NCBI GenBank assembly: GCA_040384485.1 | Contig: JAZKJH010000003.1 | Coordinates: 144,979-208,978, forward strand | DNA: 64,000 nucleotides | Source of the DNA: Patescibacteria group bacterium | Lineage (GTDB): Bacteria; Patescibacteriota; Minisyncoccia; Phycocordibacterales; DATDWN01 | Direction of reading: 5' to 3' | Part shown: positions 1-52,045 of the stretch, in pieces | Layout: every line of letters begins with the position of its first letter | Position numbering within the stretch: position 1 is the first letter of the stretch | Program-made: the position numbers and the translations under genes | The notes under the pieces: generated by a model | Seen by the model: only the letters and a program-made list of their open reading frames with translations | Told to the model about the DNA's origin: nothing | The model's database searches: none

Positions 1-167
1 TTCATATGCCAATACATATTTAAACCCATCATCATGTATATGTTTATTATAGGGTTTACTGCTAGTCCGATTATTAACCACTCTAGCAAAAATTGCGTTG
101 CATCAGCCAAAACAGCTATACATCCAAGCATTATCCATGCAATTTTACTAATTTCTCCTTTTTTCAT
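1..167 (-). CDS. Partial small hydrophobic protein, runs off the window start. Possible pilin/VirB2-like component directly downstream of the VirB4-like ATPase.
   Basis: Reverse-strand ORF starting at ATG 165-167, translating MKKGEISKIAWIMLGCIAVLADATQFLLEWLIIGLAVNPII...; two hydrophobic segments; begins right after the stop of the upstream ATPase gene; no stop codon before the window edge. Confidence 0.35.
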   Translation of the reverse strand, partial: MKKGEISKIAWIMLGCIAVLADATQFLLEWLIIGLAVNPIINIYMMMGLNMYWHM

Positions 168-174
168 AGCGTTT

Positions 175-1989
175 TTATTTACCAGCTTGCTCTAGCTCGT
201 CCTTAGCTTTTTTAATAGACAGTATTTGAGATGGGTCAGAGGTAATAATCTGTTCCTCTGTGTAAGAGGCTATGATTTTTACAGCAACATGTTTTAATCC
301 AGCAAAGAAAATACCCTCCCCTACATCCGATTCCAGTAACAGATATTTTTCCTCATCTGTTAAGTTAAAGGTTTGTTGGAGCTTGTCTATTGAGGTCGGC
401 GACTGTTTCAAAAGGATTTGAATAGAAGAGTTGGTGATAATAGGAACTCCATATGGTGACTTCATAAAGTCGTCCACATCTTGAGTGATGGTGGCAAGTC
501 CTAAGTAGTATTTTCTTCCTCTTTTTGCAAGAGAAAGCAAGAAAGATGCTGTATCTTCTGACTTCATCATCCACCAAGCCTCATCAATTACCAAAAGGCG
601 CTTCTTTAGTTTCTTTCGAACCATATTCCATATATAGTGCATAACTATATACATCGCCACCGGCTTAAGCTCATCCTCCATGTCTCGAAGTGAGAAAACT
701 ACAAATTTTTTGTTGATGTCTACGTTTGATGGTTTGTTTATGAAACCTGCCCAGGTACCTCTAGTGTATTTGGTCAGTCTTTGTGCCAATGAGTCCCCAC
801 CCTCCATTCCTGAAAGTACCAGTTCGAAGTCAGACATAAGTGGTGGTTCTATGTTAGAAAAGTTTGAGTCCGCAGTGATATCCTTTAACGCATAGGTTTC
901 AGTAATAGCTCGATCAATTATCGCGTCTTCTTCTGGAGTTAATCCTCCCATCATGATGCGGAATAGACCCACCAGGTTTATGATGTTTGAGCGAAGTACA
1001 CTAGAGAAAGACTCCCCTTCTCCTGGAGGAGGAAGTTCAAAAGGGTTTATGTGGTGTTCAGAGTTTAGAGATATATTAAAATATCTACCCCCAACTGTTT
1101 CTGCCAAGTATTCATATTCTTTTTCTGGGTCTAGAACTATCACATCTGTATCGAACATAAGAGTACGAAGGATTTCCAGTTTTGTTCCAAAAGATTTACC
1201 TGCACCTGATTTTGCAAAAGTAATAGAGTTGTAGTTTTCTAGTGAAAAACGGTCGAATAGAACCAAGGATGAGTTGTGGCGGTTTATTCCATACAAAATA
1301 CCCTTGTCTGACGTAAGGTCGAAAGATACAAATGGAAACAAAGAAGAAAGAGGTGAAGAGTTTAACTTGCTGTATACCTGCAACTCGTCTGTACCTATTG
1401 GCATAGTAGTTTTGAAAGCCTGTTCTTGTTGAAAAAGCGCTGGTTTTATATAAATAAGCTTAGCTTCAAGAATGGATTTTATCTCTGATTCGGTCTTATC
1501 TAACTCGTTGTCGGATTCTCCATAGATAGTGATATATAACCCCACATCAAAAAGTTTTTCTTGGGCCTGTTGTAGCTGGTCTCGCAAACCCTCTAAGTCT
1601 TGGTAGGCGGTGTCTAGCATAGGGTTTCGTACCAAACCCTTCGCTTCCCTAGCGTTTATCTGGCTCTGGACCTCCGCAACTTTCTTCTGAAAAGTTCTTA
1701 AAACTTGTGACGTTTCTATTGGTTGGACAAAAATAGAAACATCAAATATTTTGTCCAAGTTAATTATAGGAGAAAACCAATTTTCAGAAAGAAATCTAGG
1801 GTAAGAAATAACAAAGAAACTTCGGAGTATCTTTTCTCCAAGATTTATTTCTTTTGGTGTTACCTCTATAGCGCTGGGAGCAATGATATCTTTGAGTTCA
1901 AGATTCTGCGAATCATAGACCTCTTGTGGAAGTATGGTTGAGATATCTTGCTCTTTTGCTTTTGGTGATAAAAAGTCTAATAGTCCCAT
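175..1989 (-). CDS. virB4: VirB4/TraC/TrbE-family conjugation/T4SS ATPase (C-terminal ATPase part)
   Basis: 604-aa ORF with Walker A (AKSGAGKS) and a DEAW-type Walker B (LLVIDEAWWMM), typical of VirB4/TraC ATPases; coding-like composition across the whole length. Confidence 0.8.
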   Translation of the reverse strand: MGLLDFLSPKAKEQDISTILPQEVYDSQNLELKDIIAPSAIEVTPKEINLGEKILRSFFVISYPRFLSENWFSPIINLDKIFDVSIFVQPIETSQVLRTFQKKVAEVQSQINAREAKGLVRNPMLDTAYQDLEGLRDQLQQAQEKLFDVGLYITIYGESDNELDKTESEIKSILEAKLIYIKPALFQQEQAFKTTMPIGTDELQVYSKLNSSPLSSLFPFVSFDLTSDKGILYGINRHNSSLVLFDRFSLENYNSITFAKSGAGKSFGTKLEILRTLMFDTDVIVLDPEKEYEYLAETVGGRYFNISLNSEHHINPFELPPPGEGESFSSVLRSNIINLVGLFRIMMGGLTPEEDAIIDRAITETYALKDITADSNFSNIEPPLMSDFELVLSGMEGGDSLAQRLTKYTRGTWAGFINKPSNVDINKKFVVFSLRDMEDELKPVAMYIVMHYIWNMVRKKLKKRLLVIDEAWWMMKSEDTASFLLSLAKRGRKYYLGLATITQDVDDFMKSPYGVPIITNSSIQILLKQSPTSIDKLQQTFNLTDEEKYLLLESDVGEGIFFAGLKHVAVKIIASYTEEQIITSDPSQILSIKKAKDELEQAGK

Positions 1990-1990
1990 G

Positions 1991-2632
1991 TTAATTTGTT
2001 TTAATTGGCTTTTCTGTGTCCCCAGGATTGAAGAGTTTATAGAATAATTCTATCACCTCTTCTGTCCCGAGTCGTATAACTCGTATTCCACAACGAGATA
2101 GACCCTGCTCAACTACTGCTACTCTCTGTTCCAACTGAGTCCGGTTTTCTTCAAAGTTTGCTCGTTTGTTTTCCGCTTCCTCCGAACTACTTTTCTTTTT
2201 TAACATACTAAAAGGGCTACCACCCTTTTTTACATTTACAATAGCTGGGTCATATGAAACCACAACAAAAAAACTTTTTGTCATTATGTTGGTTGACTCA
2301 GTAAACTTCTTGACGAATTCTATGTATTCCCTGGTTTGGATTTTCATCAGCTCATTCATTTGTTCTTTGTAACGGTCCTCAAGTAGGGCTATGTAAGGCC
2401 GTATATCCAGTCGTCGTGACTCAACTACTATTTGGATAGGAAAATCTAGAGAGTTGAGAAAATCCTGATATTGCATAATAATCGCATTTCTTTCATCCTC
2501 AGATTTCAAGCTAAAGTTCAAAGATGATGCGAGCACCACCCCACGCATTGAACCATCTTTTAAAACAACTACGCCATCGCGCACTTCTTTTATTGGAACA
2601 AAGTCTTGAGTTGCTTTGGAGGTTACTGGCAT
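1991..2632 (-). CDS. VirB4 N-terminal-domain-like protein (separate ORF, 1-nt gap to the ATPase ORF)
   Basis: 213-aa ORF beginning MPVTSKATQDFVPIKEVRDGVVVLKDGSMRGVV, which resembles the N-terminus of Gram-positive-type VirB4/TraC proteins. Its TAA stop, one C, then the ATG of the ATPase ORF (TAAcATG); the two ORFs are in different frames. Confidence 0.5.
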   Translation of the reverse strand: MPVTSKATQDFVPIKEVRDGVVVLKDGSMRGVVLASSLNFSLKSEDERNAIIMQYQDFLNSLDFPIQIVVESRRLDIRPYIALLEDRYKEQMNELMKIQTREYIEFVKKFTESTNIMTKSFFVVVSYDPAIVNVKKGGSPFSMLKKKSSSEEAENKRANFEENRTQLEQRVAVVEQGLSRCGIRVIRLGTEEVIELFYKLFNPGDTEKPIKTN

Positions 2633-2699
2633 GTTTTTATTATAACACAGTAAAAATTTCTACTTCCTGATTTATAAACAAAAATTCAATTTAAAGTCT

Positions 2700-3134
2700 T
2701 TATTTAGTGGTTTTTCCACCATCCTTTGTTAGTGGGTTAAGGTTTTCGTTTATATCCAATGACCATGAAAGCTCTTTTAATTTACTATCAGAAAGTCTAG
2801 GAACGTAAACTTGGCTGTAGTTCTCCTCCACTTTTTTTACAGTTTCAATTTTTTTCTCCTGTTTTTTCCAAATATATAAGTTATTTTTAGTATAAAAAGT
2901 AAAAGCTGACTCTAGAAAGTCTATAAAAGGCTTGTTGTTTATCCTGTAGAATGCCAATGCTAGTGATAACGGAGCTATTATAGCGACAAGGATGATTGCT
3001 ATAAACAAAGGAAAAAAAGAATACATAATAAATGACATACCTGCTCCACCAACTAAGTACACAAACTGTTTTACAGTTAGTGGTCCTATCACCTTATCTT
3101 CTATTTCTATAAATTGTGGGACTTGGTATCGCAT
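2700..3134 (-). CDS. PrgI/VirB3-like small membrane protein
   Basis: 144 aa; the N-terminus MRYQVPQFIEIEDKVIGPLTVKQFVYLVGGAGMSF matches the PrgI-family pattern and is followed by two TM helices; sits directly upstream of the VirB4-like genes. Confidence 0.55.
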   Translation of the reverse strand: MRYQVPQFIEIEDKVIGPLTVKQFVYLVGGAGMSFIMYSFFPLFIAIILVAIIAPLSLALAFYRINNKPFIDFLESAFTFYTKNNLYIWKKQEKKIETVKKVEENYSQVYVPRLSDSKLKELSWSLDINENLNPLTKDGGKTTK

Positions 3135-3146
3135 TTTTTCAAATAT

Positions 3147-4145
3147 TTATTCTAATGGTTCTCTGTATGGATCCACGGCATAGCTATGGGTCGGCTTCAC
3201 AGTTTCAGCAACTTGTTTCTGTATTATAGCAGGATTTTCTATAGATTTTGTTTGTATAGGTGGAGTAGTTGTGTTTTTTGCTACTAGGTCTGGAGTAGTT
3301 TTTGGCAAAGGAACAGCTTCAGGACCAGCAGCAGGAATAACTTCATCATCGATATCTTTTGGTGCAGTAAATCTTGGAACAGGAACCGGCTGTTCTACTT
3401 TTTCTTCAATAAAATCTTTTGGTTTATAGTGAATACGATTTTCGGATGTCTTAGGTGCCTCTTGCAGTATTTTGCTTGAAGCGCTAACCATATTCTTCTC
3501 CACAAAAACAGGAGGAGTTGTTTTTTGTGGCACAAACCTTGGTGCATGATGTTTTGGTGCTACAGATACTTTTGGCTCAAGAATTTTTACACTCTCCCCC
3601 TTTTCCACCATGGGCATAATATTTGGCCTTATTTCTGGGATAGATGTAACTGGTTTTGTAATTTGAGTATGAAGTGGGGGTTTTTGTTGCTGCAGCTGTG
3701 TAGTAGGTTTTGGAGTGTTTGTTTGAGCTATGTCAGGCCTTTCAGCTACGGGACTCACCTGCTCAGTTTTTAGAAGTGGTGAGGGTTTTGAGTCCTCGCT
3801 TTCTTGGGGGGTAGGCGTTTCTGTTTTTGATGTTTTTCTTTCTACAGATTTTACGGCATATTCGAATACCCGTATTTCCAAGTCTTCAACAATCTGTTCA
3901 GATAAAAGTTTAGATATGCCTAACTCTGAAGGCATTAGTTTTATAAAATTTTCACCTTCGTCTATACCAATAAGCACAAACAGAACATTATCTGCCAGCG
4001 TTTCTGTTTGAGTGGGATTTAACGAATATTTTTTAGCGATACTCTCCGTTCTTTCTCTCCAAGATCCTTCAAAGATAAAATCCTGAACTGGTTTTGGCAG
4101 TTTTTGGAGGTAATCCGGCATGTTTTTTAGTGTTGTTTCATCCAT
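3147..4145 (-). CDS. Hypothetical protein with a ~100-aa N-terminal domain and a long Pro/Thr/Lys/Gln-rich, probably disordered, tail
   Basis: 332-aa ORF; low-complexity PT-rich C-terminal two thirds; tightly packed between the PrgI-like and VirB6-like genes (gaps of 9-13 nt). Confidence 0.5.
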   Translation of the reverse strand: MDETTLKNMPDYLQKLPKPVQDFIFEGSWRERTESIAKKYSLNPTQTETLADNVLFVLIGIDEGENFIKLMPSELGISKLLSEQIVEDLEIRVFEYAVKSVERKTSKTETPTPQESEDSKPSPLLKTEQVSPVAERPDIAQTNTPKPTTQLQQQKPPLHTQITKPVTSIPEIRPNIMPMVEKGESVKILEPKVSVAPKHHAPRFVPQKTTPPVFVEKNMVSASSKILQEAPKTSENRIHYKPKDFIEEKVEQPVPVPRFTAPKDIDDEVIPAAGPEAVPLPKTTPDLVAKNTTTPPIQTKSIENPAIIQKQVAETVKPTHSYAVDPYREPLE

Positions 4146-4153
4146 GTTGTATT

Positions 4154-6397
4154 TTAAGCAGTTGGTGTTGCAGGAGGGGTTTCTTTTGGTGCTGCAGCTT
4201 CTTCAGCTTTTGGCTTATCTGCATCAGACTCCTTAGCTTCTTCCTCTACTCTCTTCTTGGCCGCCTTCATGAGTTCTTCCATTGCTTTTTCTTCCTTACT
4301 CTTTCCTTGGAGAGCCTTTTTTGCAGCACTTGCAATTGCCCTTCTTTCACTCTGGTTTATTGGTGAGTTTGTAAGACCGGTTAATCCACCAATAAATTGA
4401 GCTGTACCCATAATACGTCCAGGATTAAGAGTTCTCTTTTCAACGGCTTCGACTCTATCAGTAAATACTTTCTTAAGCCTTGCAGCTTCAGATTTGTAGT
4501 TAGTTGCTTTGTTTTCCTCCGCCTTTTTAACAGCAGTCTCTGCGAGGGCAATATTTTCTCGCAATGTTTGCAAGCTATCTCTTTGTGACTTATTCCTGTT
4601 TTCTATTTGTTCTATTTGGTCTGCTATCTGCCTTCTCTCATCAGAATTTGTTGTTGATTGAAGGTTCATCCTCAACTCCTCTATTCTCGTCTCCCCTTCT
4701 TTTATAGATTTAGTTGCTGCTTTATTTTCTTCTTCCGCTTTCTTTTTTGCAGCCTCAGCAGCAGAGATTTCTGCATCAAATTTAGCCACTTCCACTTTGT
4801 CAGCGGCCTCCGCTTCCGCCTGCATATCCTCATTAGGTTTATATTTCTTAGCTGCTTCTTCAGCATCCTTTTTCTCCTTCTCCGCGATTGCCTTGAAGTT
4901 TAATTTCTTAGCGTCAGGAGCTTTGCCCATATCAACACCTGTTTGACTTATCAACGAAGACATTCCTGCTGAAGCTCTACCATCAAATGTGGCTGTTCTA
5001 GCTCTTTCTCCCCTATTCACTGTTATTTTCGCTAAGTTCCTTCCAACCAAACCTCCTGTTGCAGCTTTATCTTTCAAGTAATCACTGTTCGCTATCGCGT
5101 TACCTGCCCTTCCTATAGTGTTTCTACCAAGCGCTGCTGCACCTCCAAACACAGCTCCCCCAGCCAACTTACTTAATCGGCCAGTTGCTTGTCCAATAAG
5201 TTTTGAACCTTGGGTTGCAGAAGTTTTTGCCGTAATAAGGGTAAATATCGCTAAACCAATAATAATAGTGAAGTTAAAGAATAGAGATAGGAGGGACTGA
5301 GTTCCTATTGCCGCAGGACCTTGGGAAGCTCTAATAAAACCGTCACTAGAAAGCAGAGTAAGGACCACCCAGGTCATAAGCATAAACACTGGAGGAAAAA
5401 TGAGTTGTCCTTTCAAAGAGTCCCACCACTGGTTTGAGTAAGTTTTTATTGCTGGCAAGGCCATACCCATTATCGCAACAGGTGAAAGCATTAGTAATAC
5501 CAACAAAGTTACGTAACGGATTATAAAAAATATTGATATTGCAAAAAATACAAAAGAAGTAACTATAAACAGTATTGCACCCATAAGTTGTCCTACAAAC
5601 ACCTCCGGACCTGTACCGGCCACAGCAGCAAAAGTTTCACCTGAGTATATTTTATTCAAATCAAGTGCTTTCATGTACGCCACCGATAAACCAGAGATCG
5701 CCTCTCTGCTAGTATCACCCCCACCAGGTACAGAGAGTCTATCAGTTTCGTCCAATATGGCATTGTATAAGCCAATAGTTACTGCATTTGATGCGTCTAT
5801 CATAACTTTAGTGAAGAATAGTGAAAAGTTTACTAAGAGGGATGCAAGAACAAGAAAGCCCACAAACTTTTTCACATAATCTGTGCTAATCTGACCGATA
5901 ATCATCTGTATTCCATGCCAAACAAGCATGAATATAAAGACAATGTTTATCATGTCACGGATCAGTTTCCAGCCGGTATTTATACCTTCGAATTGATTAA
6001 TGCTGGTGGACATATCCATGATGGTTATATCCAAAACCATGTTCAATAAGCTTCCTGCCAGCCACAATATTCCAGAAGTTATACCAAGGATAAGTACACC
6101 AATACTTTCCAAGAAACAACCAAAAATCCATGTGGAAGGGCGGTAAAAAGTACAACCATCGCTAGGACCAGGCTGATTTGCCGCTCTCACCTCATTAACA
6201 GCTTCATCCGATCCGTCTTCGTCAAGTATGCATACCCAATTTGGGCCATCCAGGTCTCCATAGTTTACATATTTTCCAGGCTTGCCACCCTCGCCAGTAC
6301 AAGCCTGGCCGTTTACCTGGGCTAAGGAACTAGTAAAAGGAAAAAGTATTCCCGAAAAAACTATTCCTATAAAAATGTAACTGAAAAACTTTTTCAT
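4154..6397 (-). CDS. VirB6/TrbL-like polytopic membrane protein with a long C-terminal coiled-coil / KA-rich tail
   Basis: 747 aa; N-terminal signal/TM, then ~8 hydrophobic helices in the first ~430 aa, then an Ala/Lys/Glu-rich coiled-coil region. This architecture and its position next to a VirB4-like gene match VirB6-type channel subunits. Confidence 0.55.
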   Translation of the reverse strand: MKKFFSYIFIGIVFSGILFPFTSSLAQVNGQACTGEGGKPGKYVNYGDLDGPNWVCILDEDGSDEAVNEVRAANQPGPSDGCTFYRPSTWIFGCFLESIGVLILGITSGILWLAGSLLNMVLDITIMDMSTSINQFEGINTGWKLIRDMINIVFIFMLVWHGIQMIIGQISTDYVKKFVGFLVLASLLVNFSLFFTKVMIDASNAVTIGLYNAILDETDRLSVPGGGDTSREAISGLSVAYMKALDLNKIYSGETFAAVAGTGPEVFVGQLMGAILFIVTSFVFFAISIFFIIRYVTLLVLLMLSPVAIMGMALPAIKTYSNQWWDSLKGQLIFPPVFMLMTWVVLTLLSSDGFIRASQGPAAIGTQSLLSLFFNFTIIIGLAIFTLITAKTSATQGSKLIGQATGRLSKLAGGAVFGGAAALGRNTIGRAGNAIANSDYLKDKAATGGLVGRNLAKITVNRGERARTATFDGRASAGMSSLISQTGVDMGKAPDAKKLNFKAIAEKEKKDAEEAAKKYKPNEDMQAEAEAADKVEVAKFDAEISAAEAAKKKAEEENKAATKSIKEGETRIEELRMNLQSTTNSDERRQIADQIEQIENRNKSQRDSLQTLRENIALAETAVKKAEENKATNYKSEAARLKKVFTDRVEAVEKRTLNPGRIMGTAQFIGGLTGLTNSPINQSERRAIASAAKKALQGKSKEEKAMEELMKAAKKRVEEEAKESDADKPKAEEAAAPKETPPATPTA

Positions 6398-6400
6398 TTA

Positions 6401-9400
6401 TTATTTTTTACTAAAAGTTGCAACTCTCACTGTTGGGTTCCATGTGGCTACAGCATAATTTCCAGCACCATCTGTGGCTGCGTGAGGGGTGTGTGTTCTC
6501 TGATTCTCCCACAAGTTAAATTCTGATGACAGTGAGTTGTTGAATCTACCCACTACGCCATTATCGTCATGCGGTGTCACATCCGCTGCTACAGTTAAGT
6601 CCCCTGCATACCAAGAATTAAGTCCCCATGTTAATGCAGTTCTATCTGTATCAATCATTGTTACCACACCAGTAGACGATATTCTAGCTATTCCTGTTGG
6701 TAACCAATTTCGTATAAAAGTAGAAGACCCTCCAGTGAGTAGTCTTCTGTATACTTTGCTATCTGTACAGTTTGTACCTTCACATTTTTGCCATGCAATG
6801 TAGCCGTTCCCTACAGCCACTGGGTCATTGCCTACTGCAGGGCCAAGAGACTCTATTGAGTCAGTGCTTTTTTTCCATAACTTTATGTCTTCGCCGGATG
6901 ACTCCCCATCTCTAAATGCCAACCATAATGTGTTGCTACTGACTGTAAGTCTAGGGAATCCCCCAGCACCGGAATTTAGAGTAAATATTTTTTCTGTTTT
7001 TTGGTCACCGAGGTTTTTATCAAAACTAAAAAGATTAATAGCTAGATTGTTTGCACTTCGAAACGCGACATATAGTCTGTTTTGAAACCAAACAACATCA
7101 GGAAAAGAACCTACTCCCAAATCTTTATAATTTGGAGTTGAAATAGTTTGTGTCGATGCAACTGCGTTTCCTAGATTAGGAGCAAACCTTGTTATTCCAT
7201 ACTCGTAAGCTGATGTTGCAGAAAATGTTCCATCCGTGGTGTTGGCAGCTATGGTTGGCGAGAAGTTGCCGTAACCTCCTGCAAAAGCCACACCTTCAGA
7301 AACTTTTACTCCATTAGAGTTAAGTATTACAAAGGTATTTCCTGCATTGTGTGGGTTTTGCCCGATAGACGCGTACTGGTTGGACTTTGGGTTGTAAGCA
7401 AGGCTGTGCCCAGACGCTGCAGAGTTTAGGGTAATTGTCGAACCAGCCACACTACCATTACAACTAGTCATAAACTTCCCTTTTGCCCCGTTTGTTCCAG
7501 ACCAACCAACCAAGTATTTATTATTAACTGAGTTATATACAATACTCATCATTACCACAGTAGCGTTTGCTCCGGACTCTGAATACACTACAGTTTCTGG
7601 ACCAACTGTTCCTGTCAATGCATTGACAGTCCGTGCTCTGATAGAAGGGTTCCATGTAGCCGATGCTCCCGTGCCGGTGCTGTATCCTCTTTGGTATATA
7701 ACGCAGTATTCGTTCGTGCTCTCCTTTATTGCAACAGCAGGATCTCCTCTTCCATCGTCTTCAGCTACAGTAGAAAGAGAGCTTGTTAGGTTTATTCTCG
7801 GACCAACTTCTCCAGTCGTACTTATTGTTCTTAAATTAGAATGTCGTCCTGGTTTTACTGTCTGCCATACGTATACAAATTTTTTATTTTTTGAGTCGTA
7901 CTGCATAGGCGAGTTTGAATAAAACATTGAGGAGTCGTTTGGATAGCTAGTGTCAGAATGGACCAAGAAAGGACTACCAGAAAATGTTCCATCAGGGTTA
8001 ATAAAACGCCCCATAATATTTGAAGTTGTGGTTTTGTCACCATCATCCCAAGCTAACCAAACAACTAAATATTTGTTTATATCTTTTGAGTAAGCTACTT
8101 TTGGTCCTCCGGAATGCCCGCTTGTAATTGTTATTTGTCCCCCAACAGATGTTCCATCGTTGTTCATTATTTTCCCATATGTTCCGTTGGCAGATGTTCC
8201 TGCACTAACTACCAACCAGGTATTGTTGGTAGTGTTGTGTGCCAAGTTTCCACCCCAACCACCACTCGCGTTATATGAAGGAACAGTTGCTGTACCTCCC
8301 CCGCCACCACCAGGAGTGTTGGTTATCTGAATTAATTTACCATTCGAGAAAACCATTTCATTGGCAGGATTTCTTCCGATGTAAACTTTTACTGTTGCAT
8401 TTCCTACAGGAATACTGGTTGGAACTAAAGCAGTTGTTTGAGTTTTTGTGGAATTTACTGTTCCTGCAACAGACTCTCTGTTACCAGCACCATCAAAAAA
8501 CGAAACCTGATTTGTTAAGTCTGTTCCCGTTATTGTGATAGTTGTAGCTCCGGGTTTTGCAGACGAAGGCGAAACAGAGGTAATAAAAGCAGTTCCAGGG
8601 TTTGGATTGGTTTCCTCATCATCCCCACCATCTTCATCTTCTTCATCTGGTCCACCGGTACTTTCTCTACATCCACAATCATCCCCTCCACCTGCAGTAG
8701 TACAATCCATAGGAACAAATCCTTCAAAGTTTGTTTGACCCGCAGTCGCTATGGTCGCAGCTGCACCATTGATAGCGTCATACCTTTCCATGTATTCTTC
8801 TCCATCCCTCCATACAGCAATGATATCTCCCGTGGAAGGGTTATTGTTTCCATTCAGTACTTCGTCTGTGGCATTGAATCCTCTAGAAATAAGTTTTTCT
8901 TCTACAAGAGCTAGAAATCTTCTGGCATTCACTCTGCCACCCGATTCTATGTTTGGAAGGTCTGCTATGTCAGGATTTTCAGAAAGAACGGCATCCATAG
9001 CTGAACCCAAATCAGAGGCATACTTGTTTCCTGTGTCAGCACATTGACCGCCCGATGTACCAGGAACTTCATTCCCTATCCTACATCGCATAACACCAGT
9101 GTCGGGGTCAGTAAGACAAGTGAAAGTGTCCTCAGGATCGTTGACAGGCATTCTAATTGGTTGAGGTTCAGGGGCGTTTTGGAAGTCATCAATAAAGGAG
9201 TTTCCAGTCGAACCTGGTTGGCTCGTTCCTCGAAGTCCTCCTCCGTTTCCACTACCACCTACAACTCGTTCTATTAGTTGTCCAACTAACGCCCCTACAA
9301 TTTCTGTTATTTCATCGGCTGCTCCAAGTCTTTCCCAAGAAGAACCTAAACTTTTAGTAAGTTGCCCGTTGATTACTGATCCAGGAGTAACAACCTCTTT

Positions 9401-10144
9401 GGCATTAGGATCTTTATAACAATCACCCACTTCGTATCCAGCTGACAATAAATTTCCATAGTAACCTCGACTATTGTCATCCCCATCGAGCATTGCTTGA
9501 GTGATTACATACTCCTTTTTACATTTCTGAAACGACAAGAAACCACCACCCTGTTCTATTTGTTTATCTTTTTCTTCACCAGCCGCACTTACTCTCAATG
9601 ATAGTGAATTTTTTGCATCAAGATATGCCCCATAAGGGTTATTTTGACTTTTTTGAGTAATCTCAAACCACCCATCCCAACCACCCTTACTAAAGTCGTT
9701 CATAAACTCTTCGTAGTTGGCTTTTATTTTACTCAAACTACAGCTGTAATTTTCGCCACTTGTTTCTGAAAGATAATTTTTAACCAAAGCAAGTCTAACT
9801 TCTGCTTTGAAAGGAGCACACAACCGGTTTAGATTTGTATTGGATAGAAAAGAAGATGCTGTCTCATCCCCAACGTCCAAGAAAAATTGTTTTGGATCAG
9901 TTACATAACTAGGGTTTCCTTGGAATCCGGAGTTAATCCAATTTACTGTTTTTGCAGTAATCATTTTAAGGACTATTTGAGCAGCTGTGTATGCCAAAAA
10001 GTCACCAAAACCTTCTTTTGGAGCCTGAAACACATCGACATATTGAGCTTCAACCTTCTTCGGAGCAAAAGAAAAAAGCAGTGAGATTATAAAAAAAGAA
10101 AGTAGGGATTTTTTCCAAAAGTTTGATTGGGCGGAAAAAGACAT
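6401..10144 (-). CDS. Giant secreted protein (1247 aa): Cys-containing N-terminal domain, acidic Gly/Asp/Glu linker, IPT/TIG-like Ig domain, then beta-propeller-like repeats; candidate surface adhesin of the T4SS-like locus
   Basis: N-terminal signal peptide (LLSFFIISLLFSFAPKKVEAQ). TIG-like segment AFITSVSPSSAKPGATTITITGTDL. Repeated blade-like motifs (KYLVVWLAWDDGD, KFVYVWQTVKPG, KYLVGWSGTNG, LWLAFRDGE). Only 3 nt separate it from the VirB6-like gene. Confidence 0.7.
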   Translation of the reverse strand: MSFSAQSNFWKKSLLSFFIISLLFSFAPKKVEAQYVDVFQAPKEGFGDFLAYTAAQIVLKMITAKTVNWINSGFQGNPSYVTDPKQFFLDVGDETASSFLSNTNLNRLCAPFKAEVRLALVKNYLSETSGENYSCSLSKIKANYEEFMNDFSKGGWDGWFEITQKSQNNPYGAYLDAKNSLSLRVSAAGEEKDKQIEQGGGFLSFQKCKKEYVITQAMLDGDDNSRGYYGNLLSAGYEVGDCYKDPNAKEVVTPGSVINGQLTKSLGSSWERLGAADEITEIVGALVGQLIERVVGGSGNGGGLRGTSQPGSTGNSFIDDFQNAPEPQPIRMPVNDPEDTFTCLTDPDTGVMRCRIGNEVPGTSGGQCADTGNKYASDLGSAMDAVLSENPDIADLPNIESGGRVNARRFLALVEEKLISRGFNATDEVLNGNNNPSTGDIIAVWRDGEEYMERYDAINGAAATIATAGQTNFEGFVPMDCTTAGGGDDCGCRESTGGPDEEDEDGGDDEETNPNPGTAFITSVSPSSAKPGATTITITGTDLTNQVSFFDGAGNRESVAGTVNSTKTQTTALVPTSIPVGNATVKVYIGRNPANEMVFSNGKLIQITNTPGGGGGGTATVPSYNASGGWGGNLAHNTTNNTWLVVSAGTSANGTYGKIMNNDGTSVGGQITITSGHSGGPKVAYSKDINKYLVVWLAWDDGDKTTTSNIMGRFINPDGTFSGSPFLVHSDTSYPNDSSMFYSNSPMQYDSKNKKFVYVWQTVKPGRHSNLRTISTTGEVGPRINLTSSLSTVAEDDGRGDPAVAIKESTNEYCVIYQRGYSTGTGASATWNPSIRARTVNALTGTVGPETVVYSESGANATVVMMSIVYNSVNNKYLVGWSGTNGAKGKFMTSCNGSVAGSTITLNSAASGHSLAYNPKSNQYASIGQNPHNAGNTFVILNSNGVKVSEGVAFAGGYGNFSPTIAANTTDGTFSATSAYEYGITRFAPNLGNAVASTQTISTPNYKDLGVGSFPDVVWFQNRLYVAFRSANNLAINLFSFDKNLGDQKTEKIFTLNSGAGGFPRLTVSSNTLWLAFRDGESSGEDIKLWKKSTDSIESLGPAVGNDPVAVGNGYIAWQKCEGTNCTDSKVYRRLLTGGSSTFIRNWLPTGIARISSTGVVTMIDTDRTALTWGLNSWYAGDLTVAADVTPHDDNGVVGRFNNSLSSEFNLWENQRTHTPHAATDGAGNYAVATWNPTVRVATFSKK

Positions 10145-10225
10145 AATTATGTCTTTTATTATACACCAACTCGACTTGTTAACACTAGAGTTTGTGTTGA
10201 AAAGTTTTACTGAAACAAACGGTTG

Positions 10226-11050
10226 TTATATTGCTGAACCAGTTCGTTGTGCAAAGTAAGAATTTATGTCTAATAGTGCAAAGTTTAGATCTTCGCTTGT
10301 AGTGTTTTGATAGTGGTTTATTCCAGCTATTCCTGCTATTGGGTCGGAAACAGAGTCCCGCATAGCTTCAAGACTGGCGAGAATATTGCTGATGGCATTT
10401 AATAGTTTTAAATGATGCGAAGTTGCACTACTAGGCACTTCTATAGCCAACATGTCTTCAATAAAACCCTTAGTTATCCTAATTGTAGGGTCTAGTTTTA
10501 ATAAAACAGACTCATTTTCGGTCTCGATGGCAGTCATGGCGATATCTACTGGATTTTCTTTAACCTGGGTTGAGCTTTCTCTAAGAAGTCTGTTGACTGT
10601 GTTTTTGTAGCTAGTTACAAAATCTCGGTTGTTTTTGTTTACTATGTTTAAGTTTGCTTGGAGGTACACCGCCCCTTTTATCTGAGTATACTCAGGCATG
10701 GAGACAATATTTTTGGTTATTTGAGAAATCTCAGCGTCAGTGATAGTTCCATCGTCTCTAATAGATAAAAAGTACTGTGATAAAAAATCTTGAGATATTT
10801 TTGCAGTAAGGCTAGTGTCGTTAACAATTTCTTCGTCTACAGGTCTTACTACGCTTGATATTTCGTTTTGAGAAGAATCTACATCCGTTAGTATTTTTTG
10901 CCAGTCATTTTCAGTTTCTACAACAGCTCTGGGGTTTCCCGCAACCACTTGATTGTCTCCCTCGGTATTTTTTTCCTTTGTAAAAAGCCAAATACACGCA
11001 ACTATACTGGCTGAGATTATAAAAATTACAATAGTTTTATTACTAGGCAT
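10226..11050 (-). CDS. Bitopic membrane protein (N-terminal TM plus ~250-aa extracytoplasmic domain); possible T4SS accessory component of VirB8-like topology
   Basis: 274 aa with a single N-terminal hydrophobic helix (IVIFIISASIVACIWLF); first gene upstream of the giant protein on the same strand. Confidence 0.45.
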   Translation of the reverse strand: MPSNKTIVIFIISASIVACIWLFTKEKNTEGDNQVVAGNPRAVVETENDWQKILTDVDSSQNEISSVVRPVDEEIVNDTSLTAKISQDFLSQYFLSIRDDGTITDAEISQITKNIVSMPEYTQIKGAVYLQANLNIVNKNNRDFVTSYKNTVNRLLRESSTQVKENPVDIAMTAIETENESVLLKLDPTIRITKGFIEDMLAIEVPSSATSHHLKLLNAISNILASLEAMRDSVSDPIAGIAGINHYQNTTSEDLNFALLDINSYFAQRTGSAI

Positions 11051-11102
11051 ACGAAGATTATACTGCCATAATACTTTTTTTCAAAACTACTTAAGGTATT
11101 CC

Positions 11103-12766: not shown

Positions 12767-13552
12767 TTATTTAATTATACTGCAAAAACTAACCCATGTT
12801 TCTAGAGGTAAGTCCTCCGCTCTTATTTTTGTAGAAATTCCAAGTTTTTCAAAAGCAGTCAAAATGTTTTCCTTTTTATACAAAGACGACAGGTTTGGTA
12901 AAAGCTGCTTTCTTTTGTGGGCAAAACCAGCGTGAATAGTTTGAAAAAACACTGCTTCGTCTACACCCCCCAACCTTCCTTTTGATATATCTTCTATGAG
13001 TAGTATGGCTGAATCGACGTTGGGAGCCGGTACAAAAGAACCCGCTTTTACAGTTTTTATGTATTTAGGTGTTCCAAATGCTTTTACAGAAAGTGAAAGT
13101 AAACTCTCTTTGTTGTCTCGAGCTAGTATTCTGTCAGCTACTTCCTTTTGAACCATAAGAGTCATCGATTTTGGTTGGTTTTTTGTTTCCAAAAACATTC
13201 GTAGTATCTGACCTGTTATATAGTATGGGATATTGGCTATGACCTTGTAGGGCAGTTTGTAAAAAGACAGCACTCCCGGATCAAACTCAAGGATATCTTT
13301 TTCTAACACATCCAACTTTCCCGTAGAAATTTCTTTTGCAAATTTTTCTGTTAAAAAAGGTATGAGCCTGTGGTCTTTTTCTATGGCAATAACCTTGCCA
13401 GCAAGTTTTGTTAGGTATTGTGTGAGGACCCCTTCCCCTGGCCCTATTTCAAGCACAATATCACTAGGCACAATGTCGCTCGCGTCTATTATCGCAGAGA
13501 TAGCACTCTCTGATTTTAGGAAATTTTGCCCTAGTGATTTTTTGTGAAGCAT
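12767..13552 (-). CDS. rsmA: 16S rRNA (adenine1518/1519-N6)-dimethyltransferase RsmA/KsgA
   Basis: N-terminal KKSLGQNFL signature, SAM-binding LEIGPGEGVLT, 261 aa. Confidence 0.9.
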   Translation of the reverse strand: MLHKKSLGQNFLKSESAISAIIDASDIVPSDIVLEIGPGEGVLTQYLTKLAGKVIAIEKDHRLIPFLTEKFAKEISTGKLDVLEKDILEFDPGVLSFYKLPYKVIANIPYYITGQILRMFLETKNQPKSMTLMVQKEVADRILARDNKESLLSLSVKAFGTPKYIKTVKAGSFVPAPNVDSAILLIEDISKGRLGGVDEAVFFQTIHAGFAHKRKQLLPNLSSLYKKENILTAFEKLGISTKIRAEDLPLETWVSFCSIIK

Positions 13553-13574
13553 GGTTGTATAATTCAGGTTGAAT

Positions 13575-15515
13575 CTAAAAATCTATTTTGAAAAATGATT
13601 CCTTTTCTACTTCTCCAAAAAATGATTCTTTGTCTATGTATTTTTTCGGTATATCGTCTATAAACTCCGAAGGCGAATTTACCTCCATTGAACCAAATAT
13701 AGTACGAGTGATAGCGTGAGTCAAAAACAGTTTGTGCCCTGCTCGCGTAAGTGCAACATAAAAAAGCCTTCTTTCTTCCTCTGCATCCTCCCCATCTTTT
13801 GCCCTCTCACCTCGTCGTCGGTGAGGAAATAGGTCGGCTTCTAGTCCACACACAAAAACATACTGAAACTCCAAACCTTTGGAGGAATGAACAGTCATAA
13901 GCTTTACTCCAGTTTTACTTCCATCCAAAGAGTCTTGGTCTGAAGTTAGTGCTACATCTGTAAGGAATTTTTCTATTCCCTCTTCGCTCTCATATATATC
14001 GTATTTGGTTGCGAGAGTTACAAGCTCCATTATGTTCTCAAGTCTATCAGTATCTTCCTCCAACCCTGTTTTATACATATCCTCCATACCGGAGTTTTTG
14101 ATGATATATTTCAGACTTTCACTAGGTTTTTCTTTTAGTAGAACCTCCTCAAAATCCAAAAGCATGTTTTTGAAACTATCTAGTTTGGCTTTTGTTCCAC
14201 TCGAAATCTCATCTTCTTTGCCGGTAAGGATTTTTTCCAAAGTAACCTTACCTATTCCTCTCGGTGGGATGTTTATAATCCTTGAAAAGTCACTTAAATT
14301 TTGAGGGTTTAGACTGGCTTTTACAAAACTAACCACATCCTTTATTTCTTTTCTCTCAAAGAATTTAGTCCCAAGCATTTGATAGGGCACCCCAAAAGCC
14401 ATAAAAGCATCTTCCAGCACTCGAGATTGGAAGTTGGCTCTATATAGAACAGCTATCTCCTCTGCACTCACGCCTTTTTCTAGTAAATCTTTTGAGCGGA
14501 GAGCTATAAAATGAGCCTCGTCTACTTCGTTCCTTGCTTCAAACAGGGTAATTTTCTCCCCTTCACTGTTTTCAGTAAAAAGTTTTTTAGGAATTCTAAA
14601 CTTATTCTTTTCTATAATCTCATTTGCAGCAGCCAAAATGTTTTTTGTTGAACGATAGTTCTGCTCTAGGAAGAAAGTTTGGACATCTGGATAGGTTTTT
14701 TCGAAGTGAAGCATGTTTTTTATCTCTGCTCCTCGCCAAGAGTAGATGTTTTGGTCAGTATCCCCCACCACACAGATATTTCGGTGTTTTTTAGCAAGCA
14801 TTTCTACAATGCTGTTTTGAACTTTGTTTGTATCTTGGTATTCGTCAATATGCACATAAAGAAAGCGTTCCTGGTATTTTTCCAGAACCTCCTTGTTTTT
14901 CTGGAGGAGTTTTAAGGTTTTTAAAAGCAAGTCGTCAAAGTCTAGGGCCTGCTCTCTTTTCAAAGTTGCTTCATATTTCTCCCAAACTTTTTTCACAAGC
15001 TCAGAAGTAAAGTCATAACTTCCTCTTTCCATGTATTCACTTAAACTCACTCCTCTACCTTTCTCATTTGAGATAATATGTCTCACTTTATCGGAATGCT
15101 CTTTTGGGTCGAGTCCTATGGCAACAACAGCATCTTTTACAGCTTTTTTGCTGTCTCCTTGGTCAAATATAGTAAAATGTCTTGGGATTTTTAAGATTTC
15201 AGCATTCTCTTTCAGAATTTGAACTCCAAGAGAGTGAAAGGTGCTCACAAAAGGCATAGTGCGTCGAAGATGTGCCATTGAAAGATCCTTTTCTATTAGG
15301 TCACGTACTCGTTCCCGCATTTCCTTCGCAGCTTTGTTGGTAAAAGTGATGGCCAGGATTTGTTCCGGTGAAACTCCACTAGCGACCAGGTGTAGTATTC
15401 GGTGAGTAAGTGTTTTTGTTTTTCCTGCCCCTGCCCCAGCGACGATAAGTACCGGTCCGTCAGTAGCGACAACTGCCTTTTTTTGCTCATCATTAAGAGA
15501 TTCTAGGTAATTCAC
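13575..15515 (-). CDS. pcrA: UvrD/PcrA-family ATP-dependent DNA helicase
   Basis: Walker A GAGAGKT near the N-terminus, UvrD-like motifs (TFH..., DEYQDTN, VGDTDQNIYSWRGA), 646 aa. Confidence 0.9.
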   Translation of the reverse strand: MNYLESLNDEQKKAVVATDGPVLIVAGAGAGKTKTLTHRILHLVASGVSPEQILAITFTNKAAKEMRERVRDLIEKDLSMAHLRRTMPFVSTFHSLGVQILKENAEILKIPRHFTIFDQGDSKKAVKDAVVAIGLDPKEHSDKVRHIISNEKGRGVSLSEYMERGSYDFTSELVKKVWEKYEATLKREQALDFDDLLLKTLKLLQKNKEVLEKYQERFLYVHIDEYQDTNKVQNSIVEMLAKKHRNICVVGDTDQNIYSWRGAEIKNMLHFEKTYPDVQTFFLEQNYRSTKNILAAANEIIEKNKFRIPKKLFTENSEGEKITLFEARNEVDEAHFIALRSKDLLEKGVSAEEIAVLYRANFQSRVLEDAFMAFGVPYQMLGTKFFERKEIKDVVSFVKASLNPQNLSDFSRIINIPPRGIGKVTLEKILTGKEDEISSGTKAKLDSFKNMLLDFEEVLLKEKPSESLKYIIKNSGMEDMYKTGLEEDTDRLENIMELVTLATKYDIYESEEGIEKFLTDVALTSDQDSLDGSKTGVKLMTVHSSKGLEFQYVFVCGLEADLFPHRRRGERAKDGEDAEEERRLFYVALTRAGHKLFLTHAITRTIFGSMEVNSPSEFIDDIPKKYIDKESFFGEVEKESFFKIDF

Positions 15516-15844: not shown

Positions 15845-16855
15845 GTGGGATTTGCTCAGATAGTGGTGAACATAAGGTCATTTATCTTCTCTTTTTTGAT
15901 AATTTCGACCACAATTATCCCTTTGCATGCCAACGCAGGAGTTATTTCTTTTATTTCCAACTTGTTTTCAGATGAGGTTTCTGCAGAGGAAATAGATACA
16001 CCTAGTCAAAATATGGCTTTGTTGCAAGCGCCTTTGTCGCCTATGGGAGCAATAGAGGAAAAAGTAGACGAACTAGTTATTGTTGATGACGCCGCTCTGG
16101 TTTCAGAAGTAGTTATGCCAGGAGAAGGTAAGACATCTAGTGATGATCAGATTAGTATTTATGTGGTTCGTTCTGGTGACACCCTACCAGCTATAGCCAA
16201 GATGTTTGGCGTTACTGTAAACACTATTAGATGGGCGAACGATATAAATGGGAATACAATAAAAGTGGGTCAAACCTTGGTTATTCTTCCTATTGATGGC
16301 GTTCAACATGTTGTTAAAAAAGGAGACACACTACAAAGCATCGCAAAGCAACACAAAGGCGATTTGGAGGAAATAATGCAATATAACAACCTAGCCAAAG
16401 ATGCAAAACTAGTTGTAGGAGATATAGTGACTGTTCCAGACGGTGAAATAGCTGCAACCCCAACACCTACTAAGAAACCAAGTTCAGGTGGAAGTAAATC
16501 CCCTAGCTACGCTGGATACTATATGAGACCTATCGTTGGTGGAATAAAGAGTCAGGGAATCCACGGTAAAAATGGAGTTGACCTAGTTTCTCATCATGGA
16601 GCAAACATTCTTGCTTCTGCAGCAGGAGAAGTCATCATCGCTCGAAGTGCTGGATATAACGGAGGATACGGATTGTATGTAGTAGTAAAACACAGTAACG
16701 GAACTCAAACTTTGTATGCTCACATGAGTAGTGTAAATGTAAGTGTTGGACAGAAGGTTTCCCAAGGAGATGTGGTGGGTAAGATGGGAAATACAGGAAA
16801 AAGCACTGGTACACACCTTCACTTTGAGATCCGAGGGGCCAAAAACCCATTCTAA
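15845..16855 (+). CDS. LysM-domain M23-family peptidoglycan peptidase
   Basis: N-terminal signal/TM, two LysM repeats (YVVRSGDTLPAIAKMFGVTVNTI...; HVVKKGDTLQSIAKQH...), C-terminal M23 motifs (HHGANI..., GNTGKSTGTHLHFEI). Confidence 0.85.
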   Translation: MGFAQIVVNIRSFIFSFLIISTTIIPLHANAGVISFISNLFSDEVSAEEIDTPSQNMALLQAPLSPMGAIEEKVDELVIVDDAALVSEVVMPGEGKTSSDDQISIYVVRSGDTLPAIAKMFGVTVNTIRWANDINGNTIKVGQTLVILPIDGVQHVVKKGDTLQSIAKQHKGDLEEIMQYNNLAKDAKLVVGDIVTVPDGEIAATPTPTKKPSSGGSKSPSYAGYYMRPIVGGIKSQGIHGKNGVDLVSHHGANILASAAGEVIIARSAGYNGGYGLYVVVKHSNGTQTLYAHMSSVNVSVGQKVSQGDVVGKMGNTGKSTGTHLHFEIRGAKNPF

Positions 16856-23816: not shown

Positions 23817-24794
23817 ATGGCTTCGCTTAAAGATTTAAAAACTCAGTTTCTAGAATACATAGAGATAGAACGAGGTCGCTCTCTTAAAACTGTAGAAAAT
23901 TATGACCGATACATATCTAGGTTTTTAGGATTTTTGAAAAACGATGACCCGACAACAATAACCGACTCATCTGTTCGCGAGTTCCGTCTGTGGCTCAACA
24001 GACAACCAAACTTGCCATGGAAAACTCTTTTGAAAAACTCCGGGGTTGTGAAAAACAGGGATATAGACAAAACTCTTTCCAAAAGAACCCAGAACTACTA
24101 CCTCATTGCTCTACGCGCTTTTCTCAAGTACCTTGCACGCCAAGGTGTAAAAAGCATGTCTGCTGAAAGAATAGAGCTGGCAAAAGTAAGTGAACGTTCG
24201 CTAGATTTGATAACTCCAAACGAAATGTCTAGACTTATGTCCGCTCCAAACGGAAGTGACCTCAAATCTCTTCGCGACAAAGCCATCCTCGAGCTACTTT
24301 TCTCAACAGGACTCCGTGTGTCTGAGTTGTGTTCCCTACCTAGAGATATGGATATCAACTCTGACGAGCTATCTATTCGAGGAAAAGGTGGCAAGGTCCG
24401 AGTAGTTTTCATATCTGATGAAGCTCGAAATGCTGTGAAGACGTACCTAGCAAAAAGAAAAGATATGGAGGATGCATTGTTTGTGCGAGTAGGACGAGAT
24501 GGAGAGAAAAAAGCTAGTAAAAAAGAAATCAGTACCAGTAGTGCTTTGAACAGACACTCTATAGAAAGAATAGTTCGCCACTATGCAACTAAGGCTGGTT
24601 TGTCGAAAAAAGTTACTCCCCACACCATGCGCCACTTGTTTGCAACAGATTTACTATCAAACGGAGCAGATATTCGCTCAGTCCAAGCACTACTAGGGCA
24701 TTCTAGTATCATAACTACACAGATATATACACATGTGACGGATAGACATCTGAAGGATATACACAAAAAGTTCCACGGCAAAAACAAACGATAA
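23817..24794 (+). CDS. Tyrosine site-specific recombinase (XerC/XerD-like integrase)
   Basis: N-terminal SAM-like core-binding domain; catalytic residues in order: R (LRVSEL), HTMRHLFATDLL, LLGHSSIITTQIYTHV (His-x-x-Arg ... Tyr). Confidence 0.85.
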   Translation: MASLKDLKTQFLEYIEIERGRSLKTVENYDRYISRFLGFLKNDDPTTITDSSVREFRLWLNRQPNLPWKTLLKNSGVVKNRDIDKTLSKRTQNYYLIALRAFLKYLARQGVKSMSAERIELAKVSERSLDLITPNEMSRLMSAPNGSDLKSLRDKAILELLFSTGLRVSELCSLPRDMDINSDELSIRGKGGKVRVVFISDEARNAVKTYLAKRKDMEDALFVRVGRDGEKKASKKEISTSSALNRHSIERIVRHYATKAGLSKKVTPHTMRHLFATDLLSNGADIRSVQALLGHSSIITTQIYTHVTDRHLKDIHKKFHGKNKR

Positions 24795-49319: not shown

Positions 49320-49354
49320 TTCCCACTTCATTTTATATCTTAAATTTCTAATAC

Positions 49355-50572: not shown

Positions 50573-51053
50573 AATGAAATACTTTATAAACAAAAAAGAA
50601 AAAACCTCTGGCTTCAGTCTCATGGAAGTTCTGGTAGTGCTGGGTGTTCTGGCACTAGTTGTCAGTATTGTTTTTTCCGGTTTCAATAGTTTCAGTAAAA
50701 CAAAATCAGTTGGAAGTGATGCTGAAACAATAGTAGAGATTCTTCGACAAGCTCGCAACGAAACCATAGCTTCTAAAAATTCGTCAGCATATGGAGTACA
50801 TTTTAGTGGTAACACCATGACTATTTTTGTCGGACCTACCTATAGTGCTGGAGCAGCAACAAATAGGGTAATAAGTTTGCCTTCCAACAACACCTCACTC
50901 ACACTTTCTCTTACTGGTGGAGTTTCGTATGTTCTGTTTGCAAAAATTTCTGGAGAAACAAATCAAAACGGAACGATCACAGTATCTTCTTCTGGTGTTA
51001 CTGGAACAAAAACTGTTACAATATACAAAACAGGAATTGTAGAGATGAATTAA
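50565..51053 (+). CDS. Type IV pilin / pseudopilin (prepilin-type N-terminal cleavage/methylation domain)
   Basis: KTSG|FSLMEVLVVLGVLALV: Gly at -1, Glu at +5, hydrophobic helix. Confidence 0.75.
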   Translation: MDKMKYFINKKEKTSGFSLMEVLVVLGVLALVVSIVFSGFNSFSKTKSVGSDAETIVEILRQARNETIASKNSSAYGVHFSGNTMTIFVGPTYSAGAATNRVISLPSNNTSLTLSLTGGVSYVLFAKISGETNQNGTITVSSSGVTGTKTVTIYKTGIVEMN

Positions 51054-51059
51054 TTTTTT

Positions 51060-51524: not shown

Positions 51525-51525
51525 T

Positions 51526-52029: not shown

Positions 52030-52045
52030 ATTTTATATATTTATC

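Follow-up and report, generated by a model that had tools for sequence, protein, structure and literature searches.

What kind of envelope machine is encoded by the eight closely packed genes at the left edge of a Patescibacteria genome fragment? The fragment, hereafter the window, comprises 64,000 nt of contig JAZKJH010000003.1 (assembly GCA_040384485.1, positions 144,979 to 208,978). The cluster occupies window positions 1-11050 as eight co-directional minus-strand open reading frames (ORFs), separated, from the left edge onward, by gaps of 7, 1, 67, 12, 8, 3 and 81 nt. An earlier annotation made from the letters alone (the original prediction) had taken the locus for a compact, minimal machine resembling a type IV secretion system (T4SS), raising the question of whether it is a system of its own, a conjugation module or something already described. 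We find that the cluster adds no new system and is correctly understood by recognizing a known one: with a probability of about 80%, it is the chromosomal, origin-proximal T4SS of the Patescibacteria clade, which stems from the MPF-FATA systems of monoderm bacteria, here in a Paceibacteria/Parcubacteria genome. Window positions 1-11050 hold the promoter-proximal two-thirds of this T4SS cluster.

The core of the cluster carries this identification. The 604-residue protein encoded at 175..1989 (minus strand, as are all eight genes) is the motor part of a VirB4-type ATPase: it scores 368 bits with the NCBIfam model conju_CD1110, above the cutoff of 325, in an alignment spanning positions 182-732 of the 752 in the model, it matches the Pfam family P-loop_TraG at 5e-29, and both its Walker A (AKSGAGKS) and Walker B (VIDEAW) motifs are legible in the sequence. 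Next to it, at 1991..2632, a 213-residue protein matches N-terminal model parts, namely positions 101-281 of VirB4_plasma (1.5e-13) and positions 2-120 of CD1110, as well as the TrsD family (2e-8), and bears the precomputed Pfam label PF26593 (TraC-like). Since the 213-residue protein covers the N-terminus of the VirB4 model and the 604-residue protein covers the rest, the split of VirB4 is real, its N-terminal domain being encoded as a polypeptide of its own, with a TAA-C-ATG sequence at the junction. The third core component is a PrgI/VirB3-like protein of 144 residues (2700..3134), which matches PF12666 (3.7e-10, 40.6 bits, gathering score 27) and forms a hydrophobic hairpin of two transmembrane (TM) segments at residues 27-66.

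We next compared the locus with its relatives. A scan of a genome collection with VirB4 returned 539 relatives, and the best 80 (77-91% identity) were used as loci; all of these come from Parcubacteria/Paceibacteria-type metagenome-assembled genomes (MAGs), e.g., Zambryskibacteria and Taylorbacteria. A separate trsD gene is present in 78 of the 80 loci and prgI in 77. In 68 of the 78, trsD lies immediately 5' of virB4, and in the remaining loci (~10) a whole unrelated gene is inserted between the two. We also considered a programmed frameshift joining TrsD and VirB4; it was rejected in view of the gaps in the relatives, which range from -29 to 167 nt, and of these gene insertions. The TrsD/VirB4 split is ancient and no frameshift artefact.

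Synteny, established by tblastn and all-against-all ORF clustering of the loci, extends well beyond the core. The same gene order is kept in ~50-80 Paceibacteria/Parcubacteria species genomes: UvrD, KsgA, P274, the N-domain protein, VirB6, P332, PrgI, TrsD and VirB4, followed beyond VirB4 by f8, f4, a pilin, a ~410-residue protein, yidC/rnpA (on the other strand), dnaA and dnaN. Here P274, the N-domain protein, P332, f8 and f4 denote protein families, most of which are described below. Such repetition across dozens of species-level genomes is not what chance would produce. The window shows the 5' part of this order, with a UbiA-family membrane protein, KsgA/RsmA (12767-13552) and then a UvrD/PcrA helicase (KsgA-UvrD stretch, 12767-15515) located 5' of the cluster on the same strand. 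The genes expected to the left of the window edge are seen in the relatives, where f4 is a secreted protein of ~335 residues, the ~410-residue protein is TM-anchored and dnaA lies 5 kb beyond virB4; in locus L001, from a close relative, the third gene 3' of virB4 encodes a protein of ~300 residues with a T4SS_pilin domain (PF18895, 3.9e-6). The GC content of the cluster is similar to that of the remaining window.

These results bear on several claims of the original prediction. Its eight consecutive, near-contiguous minus-strand genes (measured gaps, 1-81 nt), its split VirB4 with Walker A and B motifs and its two-TM PrgI/VirB3-like protein all hold, the latter two on the CD1110, TrsD and PF12666 matches and the junction given above. 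The profile searches that it had proposed as a check returned matches for VirB4, TrsD, PrgI, TrbL (sub-threshold) and TIG, and the proposed synteny check revealed a strongly conserved rather than scattered gene order across Patescibacteria loci. Its suspicion that the cluster may continue leftward was also right, as an f8 fragment lies at the edge and the relatives carry f4, pilin-domain and 410-residue protein genes there. The description "compact" or "minimal" has to be given up: the relatives' cluster includes four more genes, among them that of the T4SS_pilin-domain protein, and reaches to the dnaA origin region.

The components differ in how well they are conserved. Median identity to the window proteins is 80% for VirB4, 65% for TrsD and 53% for PrgI, 54% and 51% for the neighbors UvrD and KsgA, and 33%, 30%, 28% and 26% for the exposed or accessory N-domain protein, VirB6, P332 and P274, respectively. 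Such a drop from cytoplasmic to exposed components is in keeping with a machine that diversifies on its outside. As an aside, VirB4 (80%) exceeds KsgA (51%) and UvrD (54%) of the same genomes, which is partly selection bias; the excess over housekeeping neighbors points to strong constraint on the ATPase.

The relatives also differ in what is inserted within or beside the conserved order. In the window, the UbiA-family gene between KsgA and P274 (11103-12764, minus strand) encodes a membrane protein of 553 residues with a UbiA prenyltransferase as its C-terminal half; apart from the window, such a gene occupies this site in just the four or five nearest relatives, and in other relatives the site holds one or two genes for secreted proteins on the reverse strand. 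Moreover, the relatives' T4SS clusters contain, at various points and in some loci between TrsD and VirB4, genes for 23S_rRNA_IVP four-helix-bundle proteins of ~120-140 residues (L023, L025, L026, L030, L040, L043, L048, L051, L054, L056, L059, L067, L070, L072 and L082, the last with a PF05635 match). These genes look like a mobile insertion that is tolerated by the operon.

Among the remaining genes of the cluster, the one at 4154..6397 encodes a polytopic membrane protein of 747 residues, in which a signal peptide and 6-8 TM segments precede a K/E/A-rich coiled-coil tail of ~350 residues that resembles generic coiled coils only. We assign it as VirB6/TrbL-like by its topology and a Pfam TrbL match below the gathering score. 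An hhalign comparison with TrsL of pSK41 gave a probability of 36%. The protein is likely, if not proven, to be VirB6: its sequence resemblance is weak, and its topology and gene position fit.

Three further families surround this recognized part. P332 (332 residues, 3147..4145) has neither a TM segment nor a signal peptide; it consists of a conserved N-terminal domain of ~100 residues and a variable P/T/Q-rich tail, and has no match in Pfam, NCBIfam or the PDB. Members of this family, 105-599 residues long, are found at the corresponding position in 59 loci. In one locus (L045), a 426-residue ORF 5' of TrsD joins the P332-family N-terminal domain to PrgI, a fusion that could be a Rosetta-stone hint of joint action or an assembly error. 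P274 (274 residues, 10226..11050), encoded by the first gene of the cluster, is bitopic, with an N-terminal TM anchor (residues 2-26) and an extracytoplasmic domain of ~245 residues. Family members occur in 53 loci, and in 50 of 52 their gene lies immediately 5' of the N-domain gene. P274 itself has no match in Pfam, NCBIfam or the PDB. None of the 35 relatives found in databases has an informative name (each is unnamed or "hypothetical"), and only two of them carry a precomputed Pfam entry, PF18884. P274 was considered as a VirB8 analogue and rejected, given no PDB profile match and hhalign comparisons in which it was unrelated to PrgL or the Trs proteins. More generally, hhalign probabilities of the lineage-specific proteins, including P332 and P274, against the tested accessory proteins of pSK41 (Trs) and pCF10 (Prg) were all <10%.

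The third family, f8, is represented at the window edge by the 5' part of a gene, 55 codons long and running off the window (1..167). The fragment matches the f8 profile at E 2.8e-16, being itself one of the 44 profile rows. Members of this family are small membrane proteins of 109-339 residues with ~4 TM segments and no signal peptide, and their gene lies immediately 3' of virB4 in 53 of the 80 loci; the L001 orthologue has no Pfam match. The left-edge ORF had been suggested to be pilin-like, and we examined it as a VirB2-type pilin. It belongs to f8, whose members have ~4 TM segments and lack both a signal peptide and a pilin match in Pfam, and so it is not a pilin of this type.

The largest gene of the cluster (6401..10144) encodes a secreted modular protein of 1247 residues, identical to the "hypothetical protein" V4690_02890 of the NCBI MAG, with a signal peptide that we recognized by eye. 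Directly behind the signal peptide lies the conserved N-terminal domain, hereafter the N-domain (residues 36-300, 9245..10039). It is followed by a module at residues 360-495 (8660..9067), which was mapped by BLASTP, recurs at differing positions in homologues and has no Pfam match, and by an IPT/TIG domain at residues ~520-591 (8372..8587). The latter matches PF01833 at 9.2e-6 (26 bits, gathering score 20.9) when residues 515-625 are scanned alone, and is missed when the whole protein is scanned. Residues 620-991 (7172..8287), called a propeller in the original prediction, form a repeat-containing module: the internal repeats of residues 620-930 reach a Smith-Waterman score of 77, compared with 34 +/- 5.7 for shuffles, and several homologues have a module boundary at residue 991. 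Finally, a C-terminal module at residues 1008-1246 (6407..7123), also mapped by BLASTP, stands alone behind other modules in homologues and has no Pfam or PDB match. The 360-495, TIG, repeat and 1008-1246 modules each recur in other combinations among the homologues, as judged by BLASTP, and other members of the N-domain family carry Ig-like, TIG, discoidin, metallophosphoesterase or S9 peptidase domains.

Across the loci, conservation of the 1247-residue protein is confined to residues 36-300. The family, found in 54 loci, ranges from 301 to 1247 residues with a median of 538, the window copy being the longest. Of the claims made for this protein, the TIG domain stands, and the label of a "giant" secreted protein is apt for the 1247 residues seen here and not for the family. 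The N-domain gene lies immediately 5' of VirB6 in 49 of 53 loci, and even two homologues with only 25-30% identity share the same gene context. There is one N-domain copy per locus and one in the 64-kb window. A profile of the N-domain retrieved 6080 cluster representatives from a library of 1.84 billion proteins, 3633 of them at E<=1e-30, and the domain is located near the N-terminus in all 150 matches listed. It has no Pfam match, no PDB sequence match and no known fold. Two AlphaFold models (pLDDT 62 and 71, pTM 0.37-0.38) agree on a mostly alpha-helical structure, in which a beta hairpin is predicted to bracket a Cys-flanked variable insert. Comparison with T4SS subunits by sequence, profile and fold gave no match, and in particular neither the helical-bundle fold of VirB5/TraC nor sequence similarity to it was found. 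The restriction of conservation to residues 36-300 appears to be unreported, as does a family of 6080 representatives without a Pfam, PDB-sequence or fold match, with its place 5' of virB6 and with swapped C-terminal modules.

Where does transcription of the cluster begin? A sigma-70-like site (TTGAAA, 16-nt spacer, TATAAT; 11 of 12 consensus matches) at 11057..11084 on the minus strand is the probable cluster promoter. Its -10 box ends 6 nt 5' of the P274 ATG, and it is the best such site in 13.6 kb, where the number of sigma-70-like sites overall is not above that of shuffles. Two further boxes were recognized on the minus strand: a TATAAT box at 10158..10163, ending 13 nt 5' of the start codon of the 1247-residue protein, and an extended -10-like box, TGTTATAAT, at 2639..2647, ending 6 nt 5' of the TrsD start codon. 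All three larger gaps carry, as consensus matches only, a -10 box 6-13 nt 5' of a start codon, too close for a Shine-Dalgarno site to fit between. Among the related loci, 31 of 50 have an extended -10 motif <=45 nt 5' of P274, compared with 0.5% of random windows, and 13 of 73 have the same motif class 5' of TrsD, compared with a 0.5% background. By this pattern, the cluster would begin at P274 and be transcribed into leaderless or very short-leader mRNAs, and the TGTTATAAT box is a possible internal promoter giving such an mRNA for TrsD. A terminator scan revealed nothing convincing between the cluster genes, and an Rfam scan returned four tRNAs only, distant from the cluster.

We further asked which T4SS components are absent. 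In line with the original prediction, no VirD4-type coupling protein, relaxase or VirB9, VirB10 or VirB11 was found among the eight genes and the 20 other window ORFs of at least 300 residues, three of which had no profile match of any kind. Nor did Pfam and NCBIfam reveal a cell-wall hydrolase domain in the eight cluster genes. On the opposite strand, 4.8 kb from the cluster, the window encodes a secreted protein of 336 residues with LysM and Peptidase_M23 domains (15845-16855, plus strand), whose family (f18) is found again in 11 related loci, by the UvrD end or adjoining PrgI. LysM/M23 domains are also found in candidate VirB1 substitutes of the published survey of Patescibacteria T4SSs (Quinonero-Coronel et al. 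2025, PMC12102498). By its domain content, the window protein may be a cell-wall hydrolase of the T4SS.

Several points weigh against the identification as a Patescibacteria-clade T4SS and against the roles given to its parts. The 80 loci were picked by VirB4 similarity, so that the VirB4 identity figures are inflated. The sole Pfam match of the VirB6-like protein, TrbL, scores 5e-5 and 23.6 bits, under the gathering score of 25.9 bits, and across the family TrbL is matched by 6 of 47 members and TrbL_4 by one of 47; of the earlier claim of a VirB6/TrbL-like protein with a coiled-coil tail, the polytopic topology and the tail are retained and the profile support falls short. The VirB2-like pilin is expected beyond the left edge of the window, and its presence is read from the relatives. 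The cluster yielded no detectable VirB8- or VirB1-like protein. Finally, the N-domain protein is only presumed to be a machine part, its model being moderate (pTM 0.38) and matching no T4SS subunit.

How might these parts work together? In the mechanism we propose, VirB4/TrsD, held at the membrane by PrgI, would power the assembly of, and transport through, a channel formed by the VirB6-like protein. The extracytoplasmic part would be made up of P274, the N-domain protein, f4, the VirB2-like pilin and the 410-residue protein, and would probably include a pilus-like conduit to the host cell. The N-domain would dock the 1247-residue protein to VirB6 or to the pilus, leaving the shuffled C-terminal modules (TIG, repeats and others) to contact the host surface. 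We favor a contact-dependent conduit needed for host-dependent growth. In S. epibionticum, the one species tested, the orthologous cluster SEML1_0006-0019 was shown to be essential for growth as an epibiont (Wang et al. 2023, PMC10633639). Reviews describe the role of the T4SS as unknown, with effector delivery or uptake of host molecules as speculation (PMC11665869, PMC12857230), and import through the Patescibacteria T4SS has been proposed (PMC11665869, PMC12102498). Among these options, uptake of host macromolecules would be the most likely, at somewhat less than even odds; effector export is conceivable and held more tentatively still, and a function in attachment only seems improbable.

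Two other functions have to be weighed against such a conduit. The cluster could be the mating-pair-formation module of a conjugative element, such as an integrative and conjugative element (ICE) or a plasmid remnant, exporting DNA: VirB4, TrsD, PrgI and VirB6 have homologues among the conjugation proteins of Gram-positive bacteria, VirB3-TrsD-VirB4 stand in the order of TrsC-TrsD-TrsE of pSK41, and a tyrosine recombinase (23817-24794) lies in the same window. Yet dozens of species have the cluster at one chromosomal place, between ksgA/uvrD and dnaA, with identity levels that follow those of the housekeeping neighbors and give no sign of recent transfer. Its GC content is that of the window, and the recombinase lies 13 kb off among housekeeping genes. 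Together with the lack of a relaxase or VirD4 among window ORFs of at least 300 residues, and with relaxases in only 103 of the 3035 genomes of the published survey (PMC12102498), this makes DNA export by a conjugative element highly improbable. A competence system for DNA uptake, like the ComB T4SS of Helicobacter working with ComEC, is suggested by the ComEC (61870-63342), RecJ and ComM-like proteins of the same window, and T4SS-based uptake has precedent (PMC11665869). However, S. epibionticum needs its T4SS for growth but not comEC (PMC10633639, PMC12857230). In addition, the type IV pilus genes that usually accompany competence (PilB, PilC) are present in the window, and no ComB-specific component was recognized; we therefore regard competence as distinctly unlikely.

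A separate matter is whether the 1247-residue protein belongs to the machine at all. It, and perhaps P274, could be an independent surface or cell-wall protein, with the N-domain a general envelope anchor and the operon position incidental. The lack of a T4SS-subunit match by sequence, profile or fold and the very large size of the family (6080 cluster representatives) speak for this, as does locus L081, in which the trio of P274, N-domain protein and VirB6-like protein is intact and virB4 is not adjacent. However, that trio retains the VirB6-like gene, and the N-domain gene, present once per locus, adjoins virB6 in 49 of 53 cases, the two being 3 nt apart in the window. Moreover, Sec-dependent extracytoplasmic subunits encoded beside virB6 are the rule in other T4SSs (virB5-virB6, trbJ-trbL). 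Independence from the machine is rather doubtful on this evidence. In Gram-negative systems, VirB5 and TrbJ are extracellular T4SS subunits acting as stalk or pilus-tip adhesins. The N-domain protein resembles them in being Sec-secreted and mainly alpha-helical, in having its gene directly 5' of virB6 and in belonging to a system with a VirB2-like pilin. The N-domain, with its 6080 cluster representatives and its gene kept together with those of P274 and VirB6, may be the missing extracellular T4SS subunit, a docking domain acting like VirB5 at the stalk or pilus tip, on which interchangeable host-binding or enzymatic modules are mounted, a proposal that we put forward tentatively, at well under even odds. 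If it is true, module swapping would set the host range of the episymbiont.

The significance of the locus thus resides in the conserved, unnamed families around the recognized core, P274, the N-domain protein, P332 and f8, which are concrete candidates for parts of a host-contact machine. The N-domain family stands out as very large, with hypervariable, modular, surface-exposed ends. Saccharibacteria, which are genetically tractable, would be the place to study these candidates, provided that they carry orthologues.

The rest of the window is mostly housekeeping in content, with the addition of a type IV pilus cluster and ComEC. The pilus cluster (47565-53824, plus strand) begins with a PilB-like T2SSE ATPase (47565-49319) and a PilC-like T2SSF protein (49355-50572), followed by several small ORFs and a 592-residue protein without a Pfam match. 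Farther along are RecJ (56868-58592) and the comEC gene mentioned above, both on the plus strand. One 64-kb window thus combines a T4SS and a type IV pilus, both reported essential in Saccharibacteria, with comEC, which is dispensable there. The cumulative GC skew of window positions 1-64000 decreases to ~46 kb and increases thereafter, and the turn coincides with a change from mostly minus-strand to mostly plus-strand genes. Since dnaA lies to the left of the window in the relatives, the skew may reflect the direction of transcription and not a replication origin.

How does the cluster compare with known systems? Its arrangement of TrsD and VirB4 has already been named and is also found in the staphylococcal plasmids pSK41 and pGO1, where the order TrsC(VirB3)-TrsD-TrsE(VirB4) of pSK41 matches VirB3-TrsD-VirB4 of the window. 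The pCF10 order PrgH(VirB6)-PrgI(VirB3)-PrgJ(VirB4) likewise parallels the window's VirB6-like protein followed, farther on, by VirB3-TrsD-VirB4. A CD1110-type VirB4 and the lack of an outer-membrane core are common to the cluster and the Gram-positive MPF-FATA systems. Unlike the Trs system of pSK41/pGO1 and the Prg/Pcf system of pCF10, the window cluster has no relaxase, VirD4-type protein, CHAP or lysozyme hydrolase or detectable VirB8-like protein, and unlike the conjugative MPF-FATA plasmid systems it is chromosomal and vertically conserved.

The closest counterpart is found in the Patescibacteria themselves. Quinonero-Coronel et al. (2025) described a monophyletic Patescibacteria VirB4 clade nested in MPF-FATA, with TrsD as the commonest partner (1664 copies adjoining virB4) and with widespread PrgI/VirB3, VirB6 and VirB2-like pilin genes. 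Besides the scarcity of relaxases already mentioned, genes for the type IV coupling protein (T4CP) were rarely nearby, and frequent neighbors were dnaA, dnaN, rnpA, ksgA and rpmH (PMC12102498). P274, the N-domain protein, P332 and f8 are not named, and no adhesins are reported, in the searchable text of this survey or of Wang et al. (PMC12102498, PMC10633639). The expectation of a non-conjugative, T4SS-like envelope machine with a probable role in host interaction agrees with what these two publications report of Patescibacteria T4SSs. The window and the published Patescibacteria-clade systems share VirB4 with a separate TrsD and PrgI/VirB3 and, less surely, VirB6; both are chromosomal, without a relaxase or T4CP in the cluster, and located by ksgA and dnaA. 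A VirB2-like pilin near the cluster is part of the published systems and is seen here in the relatives. Nothing essential differs between the two, and the window cluster is in all likelihood an orthologue of the published Patescibacteria T4SS in a Paceibacteria MAG.

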